Source of the DNA: an uncultured bacterium
GTDB lineage: Bacteria; Auribacterota; Erginobacteria; Erginobacterales; CAZKCI01
Direction: 5' to 3'
Length of the DNA: 64,000 nucleotides
Assembly: GCA_964551475.1 (NCBI GenBank)
Contig: CAZKCI010000064.1
Coordinates: 19,643 to 83,642, forward strand
The notes under the pieces were generated by a model. The model was not told the DNA's origin and searched no databases. It saw only the letters and a program-made list of their open reading frames with translations. Position 1 is the first letter of the stretch, and each line of letters opens with the position of its first letter. The position numbers and the translations under genes were made by a program. Below, one piece after another: positions 2,800 to 59,791 of this stretch.

Positions 2800-3212
2800 A
2801 CGGAAGGTAAATAGGCTAGGGTTAGGTGAATGGTTTGGTCATTGGGCAAGGGTTAGGTGCGGCCGGGTTCCACCGTTTACCTCACCTATTGACCAGACCA
2901 ATAACCTTGCCCTAACCCATTGACCGATTGGTTGACGGGTTAGGGTAAGGAAGTGGGTCTGGTAAATGGGTTAGGGTCAAGTGCGGCCTGGAGAACCGCC
3001 GGCCGGGCTGCACCATTGACCTTACCCATCGACCAGACCAATAACCTTGCCCTAACCCATTGACCGATTGGTTGACGGGTTAGGGTAAGGAAGTGGGTCT
3101 GGTAAATGGGTTAGGGTCAAGTGCGGCCTGGAGAACCGCCAGCCAGGCTGCACCATCGACCTTACCCATCGACCAGACCAATATCCTAACCCTAACCCAT
3201 CAACCCCATCCG
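2800..3212 (+). repeat. Three tandem copies of a ~125-bp MITE-like element with terminal inverted repeats (GGGTTAGGGTAAGGAAGTGGGTCTGGTAAATGGGTTAGGG … CCTTACCCATCGACCAGACCAATAACCTTGCCCTAACCC), joined by GATTGGTTGAC linkers
   Basis: Two near-identical ~150-bp direct repeats (approx 2893-3050 and 3043-3190), each carrying internal inverted arms, plus a more diverged copy at 2805-2935. The same element recurs at 6 other intergenic loci in the window. Confidence 0.8.
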
Positions 3213-3223
3213 CACCGCAACAA

Positions 3224-4213
3224 ATGAAGGAACAATCTCAAGATATTCTTCTGCAAGTCCGCGACCTCCGGAAGAGCTTCCCCCTTCGCCGGGGGCTCTT
3301 CTCCCGCCCGGCGGGGTCCGTCCGGGCGGTGGACGGGGTGAGCTTCGAGATCCCCCGCGGGACCACGCTCGGCCTGGTCGGCGAGACCGGCTGCGGGAAG
3401 ACCACGCTCGGCCGCCTCATCCTCCGTCTCCTCCCCGCCGACGGGGGAGAGGTTTTCTTCCGGGGCTTGAACGTGCTCGCCCTTCCCCCCGCCCGGCTGC
3501 GGGAGCTGCGCCAGGAGATGCAGATCGTTTTCCAGGATCCTTTCGGATCGCTGAACCCCCGGATGAGAGTCGGCGCGATCGTGGGGGAGGGGCTCCGAAT
3601 CTTTCGGCGGGGGACCGGACGGGAGATCGAGACGGAGACGGCCCGCCTCCTGGAGCGGGTGGGCCTCAACGCCTCCGCGGCGAAACTCTATCCCCACGAG
3701 TTTTCGGGCGGCCAGCGCCAGCGGATCGGGATCGCCCGGGCGATCGCGCTCCGGCCCGCGTTCATCGTCTGCGACGAGCCGGTCTCTTCGCTGGACGTCT
3801 CCATCCAGGCCCAGATCCTGAACCTTCTCGCCGACTTGCAGGAGGAGATGGGGCTCGCCTATCTCTTCATCGCCCATGATCTCCGCGTGGTCGAGCACAT
3901 CTCCCATCGGGTGGCGGTGATGTACCGGGGGCGGCTCATGGAGACGGCGAAACGGGAGGATCTTTACGCCGATCCCCGCCACCCCTACACCCGTCTCCTT
4001 CTGGATTCCATCCCCGATCTCGATCCCGCCGCCCCCCGCCGCGATCCGCCCGCCGTTGCGCCCGAAGAGGCGGCTGGCGACGGCTGCCCGTTCTTCCCGC
4101 GCTGCGGGGAGAGGAGCGAGGAATGCGGTACGGTAGTTCCGGAGCTTCAGGAGATTTTTCCCGGGCATCAGGTGGCGTGTATAAGGCAGGGAAGGCTGAA
4201 GACCGAAGGCTGA
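3224..4213 (+). CDS. ABC transporter ATP-binding protein, OppF/DppF family
   Basis: Walker A GETGCGKT, signature FSGGQRQR, Walker B FIVCDEPVSSLD and a C-terminal Cys-containing extension (CPFFPRC). Confidence 0.85.
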   Translation: MKEQSQDILLQVRDLRKSFPLRRGLFSRPAGSVRAVDGVSFEIPRGTTLGLVGETGCGKTTLGRLILRLLPADGGEVFFRGLNVLALPPARLRELRQEMQIVFQDPFGSLNPRMRVGAIVGEGLRIFRRGTGREIETETARLLERVGLNASAAKLYPHEFSGGQRQRIGIARAIALRPAFIVCDEPVSSLDVSIQAQILNLLADLQEEMGLAYLFIAHDLRVVEHISHRVAVMYRGRLMETAKREDLYADPRHPYTRLLLDSIPDLDPAAPRRDPPAVAPEEAAGDGCPFFPRCGERSEECGTVVPELQEIFPGHQVACIRQGRLKTEG

Positions 4214-9831: not shown

Positions 9832-10266
9832 ATGAGCCAGGGGGAGAACCGGCCGGGCGAAATCCATGACGAGCCGGCGGCCAGCCGTCTGGGCTACCGG
9901 GTTCTCAAGGCGGTCCTGATCATCCTGGTCGCGGGCGGCGTGGTCTTCCTGTGGAAGTTCGCCGCCCGGCGCACCCCCCCCGACCTGGCCCCCCACCGGG
10001 GACAGCTCCGGCTGCTGGAGGAGTCCTACGCCCTCCGCCAGGAGCGGATCCGCGCCGACTTTGAGGAGAAGATCCGCGCCGCGCCCAACGAGGTCCTTTC
10101 CGTCAAGTACCAGCAGGAGGAGAACCAGGAACTGAATCGGGCCGAGGACCTCTATTTCGCCGACAAGGAAGCGATCGCCCGGGGCGATTACCGCTGTCTC
10201 CCGGCCCACTGGGGGGAGGAGATCAAGCGGATGCCGAAATCAACAACTGGAACAACTGACCGTTAA
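9832..10266 (+). CDS. Hypothetical small membrane-anchored protein (144 aa)
   Basis: ORF with one TM helix ([18 protein letters not shown]) and a charged C-terminal region. It is co-directional and close to hppA. No recognisable motif. Confidence 0.45.
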
Positions 10267-13805: not shown

Positions 13806-14040
13806 AGAAAATGGGTTAGGGTTAGGAAGTGGGTCTGGTAAATGGGTTAGGGTTAAGTGCGGCCTGACAAAACCGCCAGCCGGGCTACACCATTGACCGA
13901 TTGGTTAATGGGTTGTTGATGGGTTGGGGTTAGGAAGTGGGTCTGGTAAATGGGTTAGGGCAAGGTGTCGCCAAGCCAGGCTGCACCATTAACTTTACCC
14001 ATTTACCAGACCAATATCCTTACCCTTACCCATTGACTAG
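13806..14040 (+). repeat. MITE-like elements (one truncated copy plus one full copy) directly after the HEAT-lipoprotein stop
   Basis: aTGGGTTAGGGTTAGGAAGTGGGTCTGGTAAATGGGTTAGGGTTAAGTGCGGCC…; second copy …GGGTTGGGGTTAGGAAGTGGGTCTGGTAAATGGGTTAGGGCAAGG…TTTACCCATTTACCAGACCAATATCCTTACCCTTACCC. Confidence 0.8.
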
Positions 14041-17693: not shown

Positions 17694-20600
17694 ATGTCAA
17701 TACTGACCAAAATTTTTGGCACCAAGTTCGACCGCGACCGCAAGAAACTCCAGCCCCTGGTCGACGAGATCAACCGCCGGGAGGCGGAGTACCGCAACCT
17801 CTCCGAAGAGGCCTTCCGGTCCCTCTCCGCCGGCTTCCGGGAACGGCTCGCCCGGAAGATCGCCGAGCCGACCGCCGCCCTCGCCTCCGTCCGCTCCCGC
17901 CTGGCCTCGGAGCTTACGACCGGCGAGGAGGATGAGCTCAAGGCCGAGGAGAAGGACCTGATCAAGACCATCCGGGCGGCGGAGAAAGCGGAGCTGGAGG
18001 TCCTCCTCCCCGATGCCTTCGCCGCGGTGAAGAACGCCTGCCGGAGGCTCCTCAAGCAGACCTGGGATGTCTGCGGCCAGTCCCTGACCTGGGAGATGGT
18101 CCCCTTCGACGTCCAGATCATCGGGGGGATCGCCCTCCACCAGGGGCGGATCGCCGAGATGGCCACCGGCGAAGGCAAGACGCTGGTCGCCACCTTCCCC
18201 CTCTACCTGAACGCGCTCGCCGGCCACGGCGTCCACCTGGTCACCGTGAACGACTACCTGGCCCGGCGCGACCGGGAGTGGATGGGGCGGATCTTTGAAA
18301 GCCTGGGACTCAGCGTGGGCTGCATCCAGGTGGGGATGGAGCCCGCCGAGCGGTGCGCCGCCTACGCCTGCGACATCACCTACGGGACGAACAACGAGTT
18401 CGGTTTCGACTACCTCCGCGACAACATGGCGGTCCGCCCCGAAGACCAGGTGCAGCGGATCTACCTTCACCACAAGGCGGACACCGACGAGATCAAGCGC
18501 GGCCACTACTACGCGATCATCGACGAGGCGGATTCGATCCTGATCGACGAGGCGCGGACCCCGCTGATCATCTCCGGACCGGTGGCCCGGGACGAGTCCA
18601 CCCATCTCGTCTACAAGCGGGTGATGCCGCTGATGAAGGACCTCTCCCGGCGGCAGGCGCTCCTCTGCGCGCGGCTTTTGGCGGAGGGGAAGGCGGCCTG
18701 GGAGAAGGACGACGAGGAGACGGCCGCCCGCCGCTTCTACCAGGTGAAGAAAGGCCAGCCCAAGAACAAGCAGCTGATGAGCCTGATCGAGGACCCCGCC
18801 GCCCGGAGGCTGATCGAGCGGGCCGAGGTCGAGCTCGACGCCGTCTCTTCCCAGGCCCCCCGGGCCGAGGAGGGGCGGGCGATGCGCGAGGAGCTCTTCT
18901 ACACGCTCAACGAGCGCGCCCACGAGATCAACATCACCGACAAGGGCCATCTCGCCCTCTCTCCCCAGAACCCCGACGAGTACGTGGTCGAGAGCCAGCA
19001 GCAGGACTGGCTGAGCGAGCATCAGAAGGTGGAGTCCGACCCCTTGCTGAGCCGGGAGGAGAAGGTCCTCCGCCACAACGAGATCGTCCGGGAGGAGCAG
19101 GCCTTCAACCAGAAGATCGACAAGATCCACGCCGCCTTCACCTCCCTGCGCGCGCTCGACCTCTTCGAGAAGGACGTCGAGTACGTGATCCAGGACAACA
19201 AGGTGGTGATCGTGGACGAGTTCACCGGCCGCTTGATGCCCGGCCGCCGCTACAGCGACGGGCTCCACCAGGCCCTGGAGGCGAAGGAGGGGGTCTGGAT
19301 CGAGCATGAGACGCAGACGCTGGCCACGGTCACCATCCAGAACTACTTCCGGATGTACGAGAAGCTCGCCGGGATGACCGGGACGGCCGAGACCGAGGCG
19401 GTGGAGTTCGACAAGATCTACCACCTCGACGTGATGGTCATCCCCACCAACGAGCCGGTCCGGCGGACGAACTACCACGACCGGATCTACAAGACCAAGA
19501 ACGAGAAGTACCAGGCGGTGATCGCCGAGATCGCCGCCGGCTTCGAGAAGCAGCGGCCGGTGCTGGTGGGGACGGTCTCGGTCGACACCTCCGAGGTCCT
19601 GAGCCGCATGCTGAAGCGGCGCAAGATCCCCCACCAGGTCCTGAACGCCCGCTACCATCAGCAGGAGGCGGAGATCGTGACCCGGGCCGGCCAGGCCGGC
19701 GCGGTCACCATCGCCACCAACATGGCCGGGCGGGGGACCGACATCAAGCTCGGGGCGGGCGTGGTCCGCGCGGAGTGCCTGGAGACGCGGGGGCGGAACC
19801 GCCGCGCCGCCGGGGAGGCCTTCGCGGGCGAGCCCTGGTGCTGCGTCACCTGCCGCGTCTACGACAAATGCCGCCGGGGGTCGAAGGCGCTCTGCGGGAA
19901 GCCGGCCCAGATGTTCGCCTGCCGAAGCGAGGTCCCCTGCGGACTGCACATCGTCGGGACCGAACGGCACGAGGCGCGGCGGATCGACCGCCAGCTCCGC
20001 GGCCGCTGCGCCCGCCAGGGGGACCCCGGCGCCTCGCGCTTCTACCTCTCGCTCGAGGACGACCTGATGCGCCTTTTCGGCTCCGACCGGATCGCCGGGA
20101 TCATGGGGAAGATGGGGATCGAGGAGGGGGAGGAGATGACCCATCCGCTCCTCACCCGGGCGATCGAGACCGCCCAGAAACGGGTGGAGGGGCACAACTT
20201 CTCCATCCGCGAGCACATCCTCAAATACGACGACGTGATGAACAAGCAGCGGGAGGAGATCTACGCCTTCCGCACCAGCATCATCGACAGCCTGAACCCG
20301 CGCCGGGGGATCCTGGGGGTCATCGAGGAGGCGGTCCGGGAAAAGGTGGAGGAGTTCTGCCCGGAGAAGACGCCTCCGGAGGAGTGGAAGTGGTCGCGCC
20401 TCTCCCTCTGGCTCCAGTCGACCTTTCTCATCTCGCTCCCCGAGAAGTCCCCCCCGGAAGGGATCGCCGCCGCGGGGCTCACCGAGAAGATCATGGGACA
20501 GGTCTCCCGCTTCTACGAGCTCAAGGAGGTCTACGAGGGGAAGGAGAACATGCGGCGGCTCGAGAAGCTGGTGGTCTTGTCCGTGATCGACCGCCTCTGG

Positions 20601-21051: not shown

Positions 21052-21215
21052 AAACATTGGAGTACTGGAGTATTGGAGTAGTGGAGTGATGATAATCATG
21101 GAGTATTGGAGTAGTGGAGTGATGGAGTAATGGGGCAGACTGCCGTGCGGCTTTTTTCCAATACTCCAATACTCCATCACTCCATTACTCCATTGCTCCA
21201 TCACTCCAGTACTCA
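21052..21215 (+). repeat. Large inverted repeat built from 8-mer tandem units (GGAGTANT)x~9 … (ANTACTCC)x~7, with an embedded intrinsic-terminator-like centre (GGCAGACTGCC gtgcggc TTTTTT)
   Basis: Left arm ~21058-21132, centre 21133-21157, right arm 21158-21214. The arms are reverse complements at unit level. Confidence 0.85.
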
Positions 21216-26214: not shown

Positions 26215-26220
26215 GCAGGT

Positions 26221-26288
26221 AAGGGTTAGGAAGTGGGTTTGGTCTATGGGTTACCAGACCCACTTCCTAACCCTGACCCATCGACCAG
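26221..26288 (+). repeat. Minimal MITE-like hairpin (20-bp arms GGTTAGGAAGTGGGTTTGGT / ACCAGACCCACTTCCTAACC) filling the RRM-lysS intergenic gap
   Basis: Near-perfect inverted repeat with a 9-nt loop. It has the same arm sequence as the larger elements and ends 6 bp before the lysS ATG. Confidence 0.8.
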
Positions 26289-30972: not shown

Positions 30973-31245
30973 CGGGTTAGGGTTAGGAAGTGGGTCTGGT
31001 AAATGGGTTAGGGTTAAGTGCGGCATGGCGAAACCGCCAGCCGTGCCACACCATCTACCTTACCCATCGACCAAACCCACTTCCTTACCCTCACCCATTG
31101 ACCGATTGGTTGACGGGTTAGGGTTAGGAAGTGGGTCTGGTAAATGGGTTAGGGTTAAGTTCGGCATGGCAAAACGGCTGACGGGCTACACCATTAACCT
31201 TACCCATTTACCAGACCATTATCCTGACCTTTACCTATAGACCAT
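30962..31245 (+). repeat. Two tandem MITE-like elements between ilvE and mcsA; the element/linker supplies the ilvE stop codon
   Basis: ctgattggtTGAcGGGTTAGGGTTAGGAAGTGGGTCTGGTAAATGGGTTAGGGTTAAGTGCGGC…ATCTACCTTACCCATCGACCAAACCCACTTCCTTACCCTCACCC cattgaccgattggttgac GGGTTAGGG… (second copy). Confidence 0.85.
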
Positions 31246-37398: not shown

Positions 37399-37547
37399 GG
37401 TTCAACGGATCAAGGGTTCAGCGGTTCAGAGGTTCACGGTTCAACGGTTAGATAACACAACCGCTGAACCGCTGAACCGTGAACCGTTGAACCGTGAACC
37501 GCTGAACCGCTGAACCGTGAACCGCTGAACCGTTGAACCCTGAACCC
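37399..37547 (+). repeat. ~150-nt inverted repeat made of 8-9-mer microsatellite units: (GGTTCANNG)x6 - loop agataacacaa - (CNNTGAACC)x~11, followed by a T-rich tract
   Basis: It begins 1 bp after the TPR-gene stop and ends ~20 nt before the proS ATG. The arms were read directly. Confidence 0.85.
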
Positions 37548-42137: not shown

Positions 42138-42686
42138 ATGAAAACAGTCCTGGGCATTGCCGGAAGCCCCCGGAAGGGCGGGAACACGGAGATCCTGGTC
42201 TCCCGGGTCCTCGCGGGCGCGGCCGCTCAAGGCGCCACGGTCGATCTCGTCCGCCTGGCGGAACTGAAGATCTCGGAATGCGACGGCTGCCACGCCTGCT
42301 GGAAGGGGAGGGGGTGCTCCAAGAAGGACGATATGCTCTCCCTCTATCCGAAGATCGTCTCCTGCGACGCCATCGTCTTCGGCACGCCGGTCTACTGGTA
42401 TGGGCCGACCGCCTTGATGAAGGCTTTCGTGGACCGCCTGGTCTATTTCAACTGCCCGAAGAACCGGGCTTTGATCCGGGGGAAGAAGGCGGCGATCGCC
42501 GTCCCCTTCGAGGATAAGGACCCCGCGACGGCCGATCTGATCGTGAAATTCTTCAAGAAAAGCCTGTCCTACCTGGAGATGAAGTTCGCCGGCCAGGTTC
42601 TCGCGCCCGGAGTGGGCGCAAAGGGCGAGATTATGGTCCGGTCAAGAATCCTGGCCGAGGCCTTTGATCTGGGCCGCTCATTGTGA
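42138..42686 (+). CDS. Flavodoxin-fold NADPH-dependent FMN reductase / iron-sulfur flavoprotein-like
   Basis: MKTVLGIAGSPRKGGNTEILV… (FMN_red N-terminus), CDGCHACW Cys motif, …FGTPVYWYGPTALMKAFVDRL…. Confidence 0.75.
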   Translation: MKTVLGIAGSPRKGGNTEILVSRVLAGAAAQGATVDLVRLAELKISECDGCHACWKGRGCSKKDDMLSLYPKIVSCDAIVFGTPVYWYGPTALMKAFVDRLVYFNCPKNRALIRGKKAAIAVPFEDKDPATADLIVKFFKKSLSYLEMKFAGQVLAPGVGAKGEIMVRSRILAEAFDLGRSL

Positions 42687-42756
42687 TTTTCGGTTCTCTC
42701 CCGTTTTATGTGGGTTCCCAGATCCCCATTTTCTATTCTCGTCTCCGCCCCAACCT

Positions 42757-42796
42757 TTTGGACATTTAAGGTCCGATCGGACCAGAAATGTCCAAT
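42757..42796. repeat. 38-bp near-perfect palindrome TTGGACATTT-aa-GGTCCGATCGGACC-ag-AAATGTCCAA
   Basis: Read directly. It is a member of the CGATCG-cored palindrome family also present at 57428-57653. Confidence 0.8.
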
Positions 42797-43010
42797 TTCA
42801 CTTCCGGGGCGCCGAGAAGAAGACGGCCGCGGAGGCGGCAGGGCCCGGGGCAGGGACGGCGGGGATAACCGGCCGGGATGAAGGGCGCCCTCCGAATCCA
42901 CACGAAATGGAGGAGAACCTGATTTTCCAGGCCTGTCCATAGCGTCCATCCAGTCCCTCCCGTCCATGGCGTCCCGACCCTCGCGGTTCAGTCGGCCGGT
43001 GATTCCGGCC

Positions 43011-48861: not shown

Positions 48862-48997
48862 CGGGTTCAGCGGTTCACGGTTCAGCGGTTCAGCGGTTCA
48901 ACGGTTGGAAAAATAACCGTGAACCGCTGAACCGTGAACCGCTGAACCTCTGAACCTCTGAACCGTTGAACCGTGAACCGTTGAACCTTTGAACCCT
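48862..48997 (+). repeat. ~135-nt inverted repeat of 8-9-mer units: (GGTTCANCG)x5 - loop aaaaataa - (CNNTGAACC)x~9
   Basis: It starts 2 bp after the truB stop and ends ~18 nt before the ribF ATG. It has the same architecture as 37399-37547. Confidence 0.85.
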
Positions 48998-57029: not shown

Positions 57030-57056
57030 GCCCGGTCTGCGACCGGGCGTTTTTGT
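57030..57056 (+). terminator. Rho-independent terminator GCCCGGTC-tgc-GACCGGGC-GTTTTTGTTG after rimO
   Basis: 8-bp GC stem plus a U-tract, immediately after the rimO TAG. Confidence 0.7.
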
Positions 57057-57064
57057 TGAATTTT

Positions 57065-57272
57065 TGTGGGAGCGGCGTCCTCGCCGCGATCCATGACGGC
57101 TTGGCCTTTTTAACCGCGAATTCACGCGAATAAATCGCGAATAGCCCGGATACTGATCACTGATTACTGATCACTTCTTTTTCAGTTACTGTATTCCCTG
57201 TGGGAGCGGCGTTCCTGCCGCGATTCTGTCGTTTCTTGTTTTCTGTGGGAGCGGCTTCTCGCCGCGGTCGCC
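57065..57272 (+). repeat. Three copies of a 28-nt REP-like palindromic unit (YTGTGGGAGCGGCKTYCTCGCCGCGRTY) at irregular spacing
   Basis: Copies are at ~57065-57092, 57198-57226 and 57243-57272; each contains the small hairpin GCGGCG…CGCCGC. An (ACTGATY)x3 array and (CGCGAAT)x3 motifs lie between copies. Two more copies in inverted orientation are at 59726-59791. Confidence 0.75.
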
Positions 57273-57427
57273 CGATCCCTGCGCATCGCGGGCAATTCCC
57301 CGCCCGGTCTATCGCGGGGGTAAGAAAGCCGGAAGGTTTACAGGCGTTGTACGCAACCGCCAGATTGCCAAGCGGTTAGCGGATAAATCCCCCCCCACTG
57401 TCAACCCGTTCCTCTAAAACATCGGCT

Positions 57428-57653
57428 GGATTGGACACTTTTGTACGATCGAAAAAAAGTGTCCAATCCTGAGGAAGTCAAAACGAGGAATCCCGGTTGC
57501 TCAGCATCTCAAACCGGAGAGGCATTCACGTCGAGGAACTGGGTGGATCCGGCTTGGGACACTTTCATTCCGATCGGAATGAAAGTGTCCCAACCCGAGC
57601 GGATGAGAATCAGCGTGACCGGAACAACCCTTGCCCGATCGGACAAGGGTTGT
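57428..57653. repeat. Three large palindromes with a CGATCG(G) core and TTGG(G)ACA…TGTCC(C)AA arms
   Basis: P1 57428-57469 GGATTGGACACTTTT-gtacgatcgaaa-AAAAGTGTCCAATCC. P2 57554-57593 is a perfect 40-bp palindrome TTGGGACACTTTCATTCCGATCGGAATGAAAGTGTCCCAA. P3 57624-57653 ACAACCCTTGCCCGATCGGACAAGGGTTGT. They lie in a lower-GC segment. Confidence 0.85.
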
Positions 57654-57734
57654 CCCAAGAGAGGCAAGAGATGGTGATCTGGCGCAGGAAGAAGGAGAAC
57701 CCACCCAAAACGGAAGAGAACCCCATTTTTTAGC

Positions 57735-57910
57735 TCTGGCGCCTGGCCGCAGTTTCTTCGCCAGTCTTGGCGCCGCCAGCTTCACGGTTGCCACGATCTG
57801 CCCGTAGCCCGTGCATCGGCAGAGGTTGCCGTCGATCGCCTCCCGGATCTCATGTTCGGAGGGATTGGGATTTTGGTCGAGCCCGAGTTCGATAATCGCA
57901 TCACTCTTTT
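57735..57910 (-). pseudogene. Remnant (C-terminal ~45 aa only) of a [2Fe-2S]-binding small subunit of a molybdopterin oxidoreductase (CoxS/XdhC-like)
   Basis: Minus-strand translation QKSDAIIELGLDQNPNPSEHEIREAIDGNLCRCTGYGQIVATVKLAA… contains the family-defining GNLCRCTGY motif. An in-frame stop lies immediately upstream and no N-terminal ferredoxin-like domain is present. Confidence 0.55.
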
Positions 57911-58057: not shown

Positions 58058-58086
58058 TTGACAGGTCCATCCGGCCGGGATAGTAT
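58058..58086 (+). promoter_or_regulatory. Candidate sigma70 promoter for the ArsR-family gene: TTGACA - 17 nt - TAGTAT (overlapping TATATA)
   Basis: cccTTGACAggtccatccggccgggaTAGTATatagc; a GGAG RBS lies 10 nt before the ATG at 58111. Its coordinates overlap the track ORF 57916..58497 (-), which is dismissed as spurious under noticed_but_rejected; the overlap is acknowledged rather than contradictory. Confidence 0.55.
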
Positions 58087-59703: not shown

Positions 59704-59725
59704 GGTGAGCTTGTTGAATGGTGTT

Positions 59726-59791
59726 TGTGGGAGGGGCATTCTTGCTCCGATCCAAGACGGCTCTGATCGCGACAAGAATGTCGCTCCCACA
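59726..59791. repeat. Pair of REP-like 28-nt units in inverted orientation (TGTGGGAGGGGCATTCTTGCTCCGATCC … GATCGCGACAAGAATGTCGCTCCCACA)
   Basis: Related to the 57065-57272 units, in a head-to-head arrangement (BIME-like). Confidence 0.65.

Follow-up and report, generated by a model that had tools for sequence, protein, structure and literature searches.

A 64-kb window from an uncultured bacterium of the Auribacterota (64,000 nucleotides of contig CAZKCI010000064.1) contains four long palindromes centred on CGATCG, designated P1 to P4, which belong to a family of DNA sites found beside genes for proteins related to the E. coli regulator PaaX. A site of this family lies close to the PaaX-like gene in all 14 independent loci that we assembled, with one site on each side of the gene in most of them. 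In most of these loci the upstream site ends 3–40 bp before the ATG, and the second site lies at or just after the stop codon. We consider it probable that the palindromes are copies of a DNA site recognized by a PaaX-like regulator, the copies in the window being orphans that are partly borne by a MITE (miniature inverted-repeat transposable element).

Every even centre of the window was scanned for loop-less palindromes whose arms reach 15 or more with no more than two mismatches. Eight were found, compared with 0–2 in each of 20 first-order Markov simulations of the window (mean 0.3), and P1–P4 account for four of the eight, all of them centred on CGATCG. This hexamer makes up 6.7% of the palindromic hexamers of the window, so that its presence at the centre of four of eight long palindromes has a probability of approximately 1e-3. 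Among all 79 CGATCG sites, arm pairing reached 16–23 of 24 positions at P1–P4 and 6–13 in the bulk, with one unrelated site also at 16/24.

The four palindromes share a common anatomy: TTGG(G)ACA(Y)TT, then 4–6 variable self-complementary bases, then (C)CGATCG(G), with a distance of 8–9 nt between the core and TGTCC in P1, P2, P3 and P4 alike. The two mismatches of P1, a member of the 8-nt spacing class, adjoin the core, and P2 encloses the perfect 40-mer TTGGGACACTTTCATTCCGATCGGAATGAAAGTGTCCCAA at 57554–57593. The predicted hairpins are very stable (z = -4.6 to -9.2), with DNA fold energies of -15.2 kcal/mol for P1 (z = -7.7) and -22 kcal/mol for P2 (z = -9.2). The initial annotation of this stretch, which had reported the palindromes as one family, was accurate as to their presence and shared anatomy. 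Its description of P3 as a copy without the outer motif on one side needs correction: P3 carries the ACAAC/GTTGT form of the half-site (GGAACAAC / GTTGTCCC), which also occurs in loci L046 and L050, and it is no degenerate copy.

The association with PaaX-like genes was obtained from two directions. Six of the 14 loci were selected through the palindrome (L038, L029, L037, L012, L040 and L015). In these six independent lineages, a gene encoding the PF20803 PaaX_M domain lies within approximately 250 bp of a palindrome, and in three of them (L038, L037 and L012) palindromes occur on both sides of the gene. The encoded neighbours are 170–260 aa long and combine a winged helix with the Cas2-like PaaX_M domain; the family as a whole spans 170–270 aa, and some members also carry PaaX_C. 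In the reverse test, eight homologues were picked on protein sequence alone and their flanks were then read. Seven of the eight (L046, L047, L048, L050, L051, L054 and L056) had sites on both sides, or on every side covered by the contig. The upstream palindrome ends only 5–9 nt before the start codon in L012, L015, L029, L037 and L051.

The sites are not identical between lineages. Their core is CGATCG in most loci, CGGCCG in L051 and of the CGGTCG/CGACCG type in L029, L049 and L056, and the outer boxes comprise GGACA, GTACA, GAACA, ACCGATA and others depending on the lineage. These differences in cores and boxes indicate that the site changes along with the protein lineage. The family is very large, with 3,753 clusters at 50% identity for E <= 1e-3 and 583 for E <= 1e-10. 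It is probably commonest in the Candidate Phyla Radiation (CPR)/Patescibacteria, and none of its genes were found in viral contigs. The gene neighbours include a CN_hydrolase gene, a cation-efflux gene, LemA or dnaE, and no paa genes. Gene order is conserved between L046 and L047, where a CN_hydrolase gene and a gene of 140 aa follow the PaaX-like gene.

At the protein level, P0003 (L044–L046) matched E. coli PaaX (PDB 8A39) with E = 7e-14, all proteins tested scored 41–82 bits against PF20803 (cut-off 24), and the long forms additionally contain PF08223 PaaX_C. Scores against the equivalog model TIGR02277 were 110 bits or less, below its cut-off of 264.55; together with the lack of paa neighbours, this identifies the protein as PaaX-like and not as PaaX. 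The central domain matches Cas2 profiles over strand beta-1 and helix alpha-1, and 12 diverse members show little or no variation at the residues F-D-I-P-E, R and Q-x-S-x-W, whereas E. coli PaaX has LSEGL and ALAPSL at those motif positions. Searches of PHROGs gave no meaningful match, PADLOC returned only Cas2, Csa3 and CARF domain models, and Y1_Tnp had no match in the bracketed proteins.

A PaaX-like gene of the window organism itself was found on another contig, L046. We infer that L046 derives from the same organism because it occurs in the same four samples as the window contigs, shares other repeat families with the window (GGTTCAG heptamer arrays and TGTGGGAGCGG repeats) and has a similar GC content (0.638 versus 0.646). 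Its PaaX-like gene encodes 269/299 aa with PaaX_M and PaaX_C, and is divergent from a two-gene unit that encodes a 429-aa protein of unknown function and includes a cation-efflux gene. Two upstream sites sit in the divergent intergenic region, and one of them (9928–9957) matches P2 over 30 bp with 93% identity. In the 64-kb window, tblastn with four family members (E <= 50) returned noise only, with no PaaX-like gene or remnant. With the regulator gene on another contig, the four copies in the window would be orphans.

These findings are consistent with the following mechanism. If E. coli PaaX is taken as a guide, the outer half-sites R-ACA-M-Y (here TTGGACAY), approximately 24 bp apart, would be the contacts of a dimer, and the conserved CGATCG would sit under its centre. 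At the regulator's own gene, where the site overlaps the promoter or closely follows it, autoregulation would result, presumably by repression; a second site lies after the gene. The orphan copies in the window, as decoys or architectural elements, would remain able to bind the protein, probably with no regulatory role of their own, and no window gene is so placed that they could control it. The E. coli PaaX site consists of two half-sites, TGATTC(N27)GAATCA, with an overall length of 39 bp (PMC9493321), and TTGGACA-N24-TGTCCAA spans 38 bp. The two systems are thus alike in having a homologous protein, two short and distant inverted half-sites spanning approximately 38–39 bp, and a site at the regulator's own promoter. 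They differ in the half-site sequence, in the conserved CGATCG centre and fully self-complementary spacer found here, in the second site after the gene and the dispersed copies, in the absence of nearby paa genes, and in the FDIPE/QKSVW Cas2-type motif, which is kept here and lost in PaaX. Of the possibilities raised by the initial annotation, operators for a dimeric regulator fit best. The local ArsR-family protein that it named for binding tests is not the regulator indicated, the evidence pointing instead to the PaaX-like protein encoded on L046. The features of the window and of the protein-selected loci are listed in Table 1.

Table 1. Palindromes and associated features in the window, and sites at PaaX-like genes selected on protein sequence.
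Feature	Locus	Position	Strand	Description
Left target-site duplication TGATTTTC	Window	42684-42691	+	8 bp; includes TGA stop of FMN-reductase gene (42138-42686)
MITE-like element	Window	42692-42919	+	228 bp; P4 at centre; terminal inverted repeats GGTTCTCTCCCGTTTTATGTGGGTTCCCAGA and CCTCCGAATCCACACGAAATGGAGGAGAACC
P4	Window	42758-42795	no strand	38-bp palindrome TTGGACATTTAAGGTC-CGATCG-GACCAGAAATGTCCAA; arm 19, 2 mismatches
Right target-site duplication TGATTTTC	Window	42920-42927	+	Exact 8-bp copy
P1	Window	57428-57469	no strand	42-bp palindrome GGATTGGACACTTTTGTA-CGATCG-AAAAAAAGTGTCCAATCC; arm 21
P2	Window	57550-57597	no strand	48-bp palindrome; arm 24, 1 mismatch
P3	Window	57621-57656	no strand	36-bp palindrome GGAACAACCCTTGCC-CGATCG-GACAAGGGTTGTCCC; arm 18, 2 mismatches
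MITE terminal inverted repeat GGTTCTCTTCCGTTTTGGGTGGGTTC...	Window	57692-57722	-	88% over 26 bp; 24/31 matches to left terminal inverted repeat
[2Fe-2S] (CoxS-like) gene remnant	Window	~57733-57870	-	PF01799 Fer2_2, E = 2e-11
P0001	L041			Orthologue of L040 gene; site 17 bp before ATG, contig start inside palindrome
P0003/P0009	L044-L046			Two CCGATCGG sites upstream, one over stop codon
P0005	L047			Site 27 bp after stop; core-only site 38 bp before ATG
P0008	L048			GCGATCGC sites on both sides
P0007	L049			Gene flanked by repeated CGGTCG-containing motif copies, not scored as palindrome
P0011	L050			Four tandem upstream sites; last abuts conserved -10-like TATAGT, ends ~21 bp before ATG
P0016	L051			CGGCCG-core sites 9 bp before ATG, 13 bp after stop
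P0012	L054			Sites 16 bp before ATG, 57 bp after stop
P0025	L056			40-bp palindromes, CGGTCA/CGACCG-type centre, before ATG and over stop

The element that carries P4 was characterized by its ends, its insertion site and its relatives. Its terminal inverted repeats are approximately 30 bp long, start with GGTTCTC and are complementary at 22 of 31 positions, and the insertion lies 5 bp after the FMN-reductase stop codon and 230 bp before nusA. The terminal repeats, the target duplication, the absence of coding capacity and the occurrence of copies in unrelated contexts together identify it as a MITE. The same element is present at 82–88% identity in the metagenome loci L022 and L033 (Ga0105104 contigs), with unrelated flanks. 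The L022 copy contains two full palindromes, A and B, 112 bp apart, and L033 contains B and the right module only. P4 is a hybrid of these, its left arm matching palindrome A and its right arm palindrome B, which can be explained by a deletion between two identical 10-bp cores that form the direct repeat TCCGATCGGA. GGTTCT ends and 8-bp duplications are typical of the IS6/IS26 family, to which the element may be related. MITEs that carry transcription-factor sites, such as Correia elements, offer a precedent for P4 inside an element with terminal repeats and an 8-bp duplication, with the difference that the palindrome here is central cargo and not a terminal repeat, and that most of its relatives elsewhere have no MITE around them.

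The cluster of P1–P3 bears traces of the same element. A third copy of the terminal repeat (57692–57722) follows P3 at an offset of 40–66 nt that, by local alignment, equals that of the complete element, and P3 together with this end (57621–57722) thus represents a partial copy of the MITE left module. MITE modules beside P1, in the P1–P2 spacer and upstream of the L040 palindrome gave alignment scores no better than shuffles. P1–P3 lie in a repeat-rich, non-coding stretch between a rimO terminator-like site (57030–57048) and the minus-strand [2Fe-2S] pseudogene, of which approximately 45 codons (...AIIELGLDQNPNPSEHEIREAIDGNLCRCTGYGQIVATVKL...) persist after in-frame stops. On the reading as orphan PaaX-like sites, P4 would have come inside the MITE and P3 with a MITE end, and P1 and P2 would belong to the same repeat-rich scar that extends from rimO to the pseudogene. 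P1–P3 are 450–680 bp upstream of arsR, which has a promoter-like site of its own at 58058–58086, approximately 400 bp beyond P3. Given this site and the terminator-like site of rimO, no gene is placed for control by P1–P3.

This neighbourhood also clarifies the relation to genomic islands. The lower-GC segment noted initially is real, with values of 0.55–0.59 over 57–61 kb versus approximately 0.65 elsewhere, and the palindromes do lie at the edges of accessory regions. The further suggestion that they mark island borders is not supported: P4 lies inside a MITE, P3 abuts a MITE end, and a search for a partner palindrome on the opposite side of the low-GC island, within L001, gave none. The position of P1–P3 at the edge of the low-GC ars/thiol island is one of accumulated mobile-element debris.

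Relatives in other genomes were collected with a pattern in which GGACAYT, CGATCG and ARTGTCC were fixed and 6–7 interior bases per side were left free. It matched 36 loci, of which 16 are stretches of GTDB species genomes and 20 come from JGI metagenomes. In most matches the free interior bases are self-complementary too, and the loci hold further, unselected palindromes centred on CGATCG with the related arms GTGGACAG, CGAACAC and TGTACAC. Because the pattern has palindromy built in at 10 positions of each arm, isolated matches in distant phyla may be chance palindromes. A Chlamydiae terminator-like site in L016/L027 may be one example, and we estimate that approximately 10 unrelated perfect long palindromes per genome would suffice for the number of matches seen. 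Family membership is therefore claimed only where a PaaX-like gene or several related copies are present.

Several observations weigh against the sites being operators of a PaaX-like regulator and nothing more. E. coli PaaX lacks the Cas2-type motif FDIPE...Q.S.W, which is invariant in the present family and hints that its proteins do more than bind DNA. Many copies, P1–P3 included, lie between convergent or co-directional genes or far from start codons. Identical copies also occur in unrelated flanks: four in SDBV01 are 100% identical over 45–53 bp and three in Ga0105104 over 41–46 bp, which looks like recent copying rather than a regulon. Finally, non-conserved arm positions are nearly always complementary, even within one genome and around one gene, and this counts against a plain operator because such an operator does not require a symmetric interior.

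The strength of this symmetry was quantified in a covariation alignment of 27 distinct copies (A3). Paired arm cells amounted to 81%, versus 60% in shuffles and 30–41% in slid controls, and the covariation score was 0.514 versus 0.145 in shuffles, a value reached by 0 of 500 shuffles. Four pair types occurred at the interior pairs, and non-pairs were few. Across genomes, such covariation could be mimicked by lineages that diverge in specificity, but this divergence cannot account for the different self-symmetric variants seen in a single genome or at a single gene, as in L012, L037, L022 and the window. Palindromy also reaches variable lengths past the conserved motif. Gene-proximal arrays such as that of L050 have asymmetric interiors, which shows that symmetry is not needed at promoter sites. 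The symmetry and the recent copying thus point to one of three sources: a hairpin or cruciform function, arm-against-arm correction, or Cas2-type activity on the site. The spacings of clustered copies (53, 54, 65, 112, 125 and 162 bp) showed no consistent helical phase.

A first way to accommodate these features, which we regard as unlikely, is a selfish element resembling repetitive extragenic palindromes (REPs). The hairpin of approximately 40 bp would be the copied unit, and the bracketed winged-helix/Cas2-like gene would encode its cognate enzyme, comparable to a REP-associated tyrosine transposase (RAYT); the Cas2-like domain would nick the CGATCG centre of the hairpin or cruciform, leading to copying and to symmetric arms. 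The gene does lie between two sites in most of the 14 loci, as RAYT genes lie between REPs, and the identical 41–53-bp copies, the strong arm covariation and the variable reach of the palindromy agree with such a process. So do the Cas2-type motif, in which the strand beta-1 Asp is invariant here and lost in canonical PaaX, and hybrid palindromes such as P4, which suggest core exchange. The P4 hybrid is however also possible by deletion between the 10-bp direct repeat, and where mobility is documented, in P4, it was the surrounding MITE that moved. PaaX_M domains are not known to have nuclease or transposase activity. The conserved gene order of L046 and L047 and the presence of dnaE next door in two CPR loci make the gene look resident and not mobile. 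Copy numbers, as counted on the contigs only, are a handful per 100 kb and not hundreds (four in the 64-kb window, three in 21 kb of L046 and four in approximately 170 kb of SDBV01 contigs), and inspection by eye revealed no target-site duplications around the bare palindromes.

REP/RAYT systems consist of GTAG- or CGTC-tagged palindromes with transposases (PMC3733652). The likeness extends to short intergenic palindromes (20–40 bp) in several copies, sometimes clustered, with covarying arms and a bracketed cognate gene. In contrast to REPs, which are imperfect and oriented stem-loops, the units found here are perfect, loop-less and symmetric, and no aligned copy has a GTAG or CGTC tag; the bracketed gene is winged-helix/Cas2-like and not a Y1 HUH transposase, and the copy number seen is low. 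The proposal of a second REP-like family is therefore upheld as far as identical copies in unrelated flanks are concerned, but the tag and the Y1 transposase gene that define REP/RAYT systems are absent.

Slightly less credible again is a related possibility, in which an unrecognized selfish or self-regulating module would be formed by the winged-helix/Cas2-like proteins together with the palindromes on either side of their genes, with a Cas2-type site active on the CGATCG centre of the extruded hairpin or cruciform. If true, a single Cas2-type activity would explain the conserved centre, the enforced arm symmetry, the hybrid palindromes and the identical orphan copies, and Cas2, the protein of CRISPR adaptation, would have in this protein a free-living relative recognizing palindromic repeats.

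We attach only a small probability to a function as RNA hairpins, that is, stem-loops in 5'- or 3'-untranslated regions that would terminate transcription, stabilize mRNA or occlude the start codon. The Cas2-like domain, with its VapD/Cas2-type RNase fold, might bind or cut them, and the orphans would be terminator- or insulator-like hairpins. The very stable predicted folds and the strong covariation suit this idea, as do the many copies in convergent or co-directional intergenic regions, the upstream copies 5–9 nt before the start codon in the five loci named above, and the terminator-like position of the downstream sites. A perfect palindrome nevertheless folds alike on both strands, so that no strand bias points to RNA; most copies have no T-tract, and a terminator would be out of place at the L046 sites, which occupy a divergent promoter region. 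For P1–P3, the terminator reading was rejected: rimO is already served by a canonical terminator-like site located upstream of P1, and the palindromes carry no T-tracts. A search of the whole window against Rfam gave no matches at the gathering score, and a local search at E <= 1 gave only sub-threshold chance matches to hairpin (miRNA), leader and sRNA models.

Site-specific recombination is more doubtful still. Here the palindromes would bound cassettes or islands, and crossover would take place within the symmetric CGATCG core, much as at attC or pdif modules. This would account for P4 as an A-left/B-right hybrid of palindromes that are separate in L022, for the two copies that flank a 2-kb two-gene module in L005, for site-gene-site units in which the PaaX-like open reading frame starts a few bp after the site, as in integron cassettes, and for the cluster of P1–P3 at a low-GC island border. 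However, none of the loci has a recombinase gene linked to the sites, the far side of the ars island showed no partner site within L001, and a symmetric core confers no recombination polarity. In L012 and L037, moreover, each of the two sites around the gene is symmetric with itself (A|A, B|B), unlike the reciprocal hybrids A|B and B|A expected from integration. Integron attC sites do resemble the palindromes in their conserved outer boxes, their variable self-complementary interior, their bracketing of single open reading frames and the formation of hybrid sites after loss of an intervening segment. They differ in their R''/L''...L'/R' boxes (RYYYAAC...GTTRRRY), which are absent from the aligned copies, and in their extrahelical bases, of which there are none here; the centre is conserved here and variable in attC, and no cassette arrays were seen. 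No integrase (IntI) was present among the gene products with Pfam domains listed or searched.

The palindromes are very improbable as operators of the adjacent ArsR-family repressor, to which P1–P3 are linked by their upstream position but from whose promoter-like site they lie far, since they recur at many loci that have no ars genes and have PaaX-like genes as their recurrent neighbour, and equally so as PvuI-type (CGATCG) restriction-modification or methylation motifs, as the hexamer shows neither depletion nor strong enrichment in the window (79 observed versus 60 expected) and no methyltransferase or endonuclease gene was seen beside any copy. The restriction-modification link raised in the initial annotation accordingly finds no support in the hexamer counts. 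CGATCG is reported as a methyltransferase target within the cyanobacterial highly iterated palindrome HIP1 (PMC6604393, PMC5861425), which has the sequence GCGATCGC (PMC5861425). The CGATCG core is common to both, and some members of the present family contain the full GCGATCGC (L008, L016, L021 and L048). HIP1, however, is a hyper-abundant 8-mer (15- to 300-fold) that also occurs inside genes, whereas in the window CGATCG is 1.3-fold enriched, GCGATCGC occurs only 11 times in 64 kb, and the unit is a 34–50-bp palindrome with a second conserved box.

The operator of a transcription factor is in itself an ordinary element. Recognition by a PaaX-like regulator would nevertheless involve three unusual features, none of which was found in the searched literature: a very large, uncharacterized PaaX-like family with a cognate site of approximately 40 bp beside the gene in 14/14 loci, a strict two-fold symmetry at non-conserved positions, and the escape of sites as identical orphan copies, some of them carried by a MITE. 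The pairing of PaaX-like protein and palindrome was likewise not found described in the literature on PaaX, Cas2, CPR or CGATCG palindromic repeats. It constitutes a directly testable protein-DNA assignment for a family that is probably commonest in CPR, a group with known sites for hardly any regulators, and it raises the question of whether the retained Cas2-type motif acts on palindromic DNA.

There is also a consequence for annotation, as the pairing explains a class of long palindromes that break short-read assemblies. De Bruijn graphs usually break at a perfect palindrome longer than k, and such breaks could conceal these sites in k-mer assemblies. Logan short-read contigs often begin or end at the centres of perfect palindromes (L003, L004 and L041–L043 at their start, L048 at its end). 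Two JGI contigs, one of them Ga0393266_0000007 (242 kb), and the two Logan contigs L003 and L004 encode the ArsR protein of the window with identical sequence, and both Logan contigs start inside P2, at window position 57564.

Further observations concern individual loci. In L005 (metagenome-assembled genome MFD02416.bin.2.262), two 98-bp repeats at 1669–1766 and 3696–3793 each comprise the palindrome and approximately 45 bp on one side. The module between them consists of a gene of unknown function and a CPBP-protease/PDZ gene and is AT-rich by eye, and the second copy lies 81 bp before a pair of open reading frames read by eye as toxin-antitoxin (ribbon-helix-helix antitoxin and MazF-type toxin). 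The dnaE gene, encoding DNA polymerase III alpha, adjoins the PaaX-like gene in L051 (1084–2503) and L056 (1–1314), both low-GC and probably CPR; the two genes are convergent in one locus and divergent in the other. The L040 gene (metagenome Ga0105104) has an in-frame TGA at 2344–2346 where P0001, 86% identical, has Arg (R), which is a pseudogene or a sequencing error.

In the L050 contig (1,175 bp), the first ~119 bp are repeated at the end (1–125 and 1057–1175), with one G/T difference that creates a stop. The PaaX-like gene may be duplicated in tandem here, or the repeat may stem from variation between strains or from an artefact of assembly, and the called 186-aa P0011 protein is probably a truncated 253-aa long form. 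A simple sigma-70 scan of L050 found no full promoter. Upstream of three long-form genes, a conserved block, TGCAAGAAAATC(C/G)CC-N-CGA/CAAAAG-N-TCCTTATAGT, was found (L046 9975–10070, L047 40–85 and L050 495–540). It ends in the -10-like TATAGT, has no good -35 at 16–18 nt, and may represent a different type of promoter or an additional regulatory site.

Three other repeat families were noted. Short-period tandem arrays (GGTTCAGC/GGTTCAC units and ATGGAGT-type units) occur in several copies, at 37405–37518, 48864–48956 and 21098–21214 of the window and at 18523–18583 of L046, and form long inverted repeats with 17–48-nt loops. The family GGTTAGGGTTAGGAAGTGGGTCTGGTAAATGGGT and its complement occupies at least four places in the window (2880–3115, 13919–14033, 26218–26278 and 31058–31244), with inverted-repeat arms of 26–47 nt that are 74–92% complementary. 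A REP-like repeat, (T)GTGGGAGCGGC / TGTGGGAGGGGC, is present at 57061–57095, 57152–57280 and 59721–59791 of the window and at 1702–1810 of L046; it adjoins P1–P3 and also lies inside the ars/thiol cluster, and it constitutes a family separate from the CGATCG palindromes.

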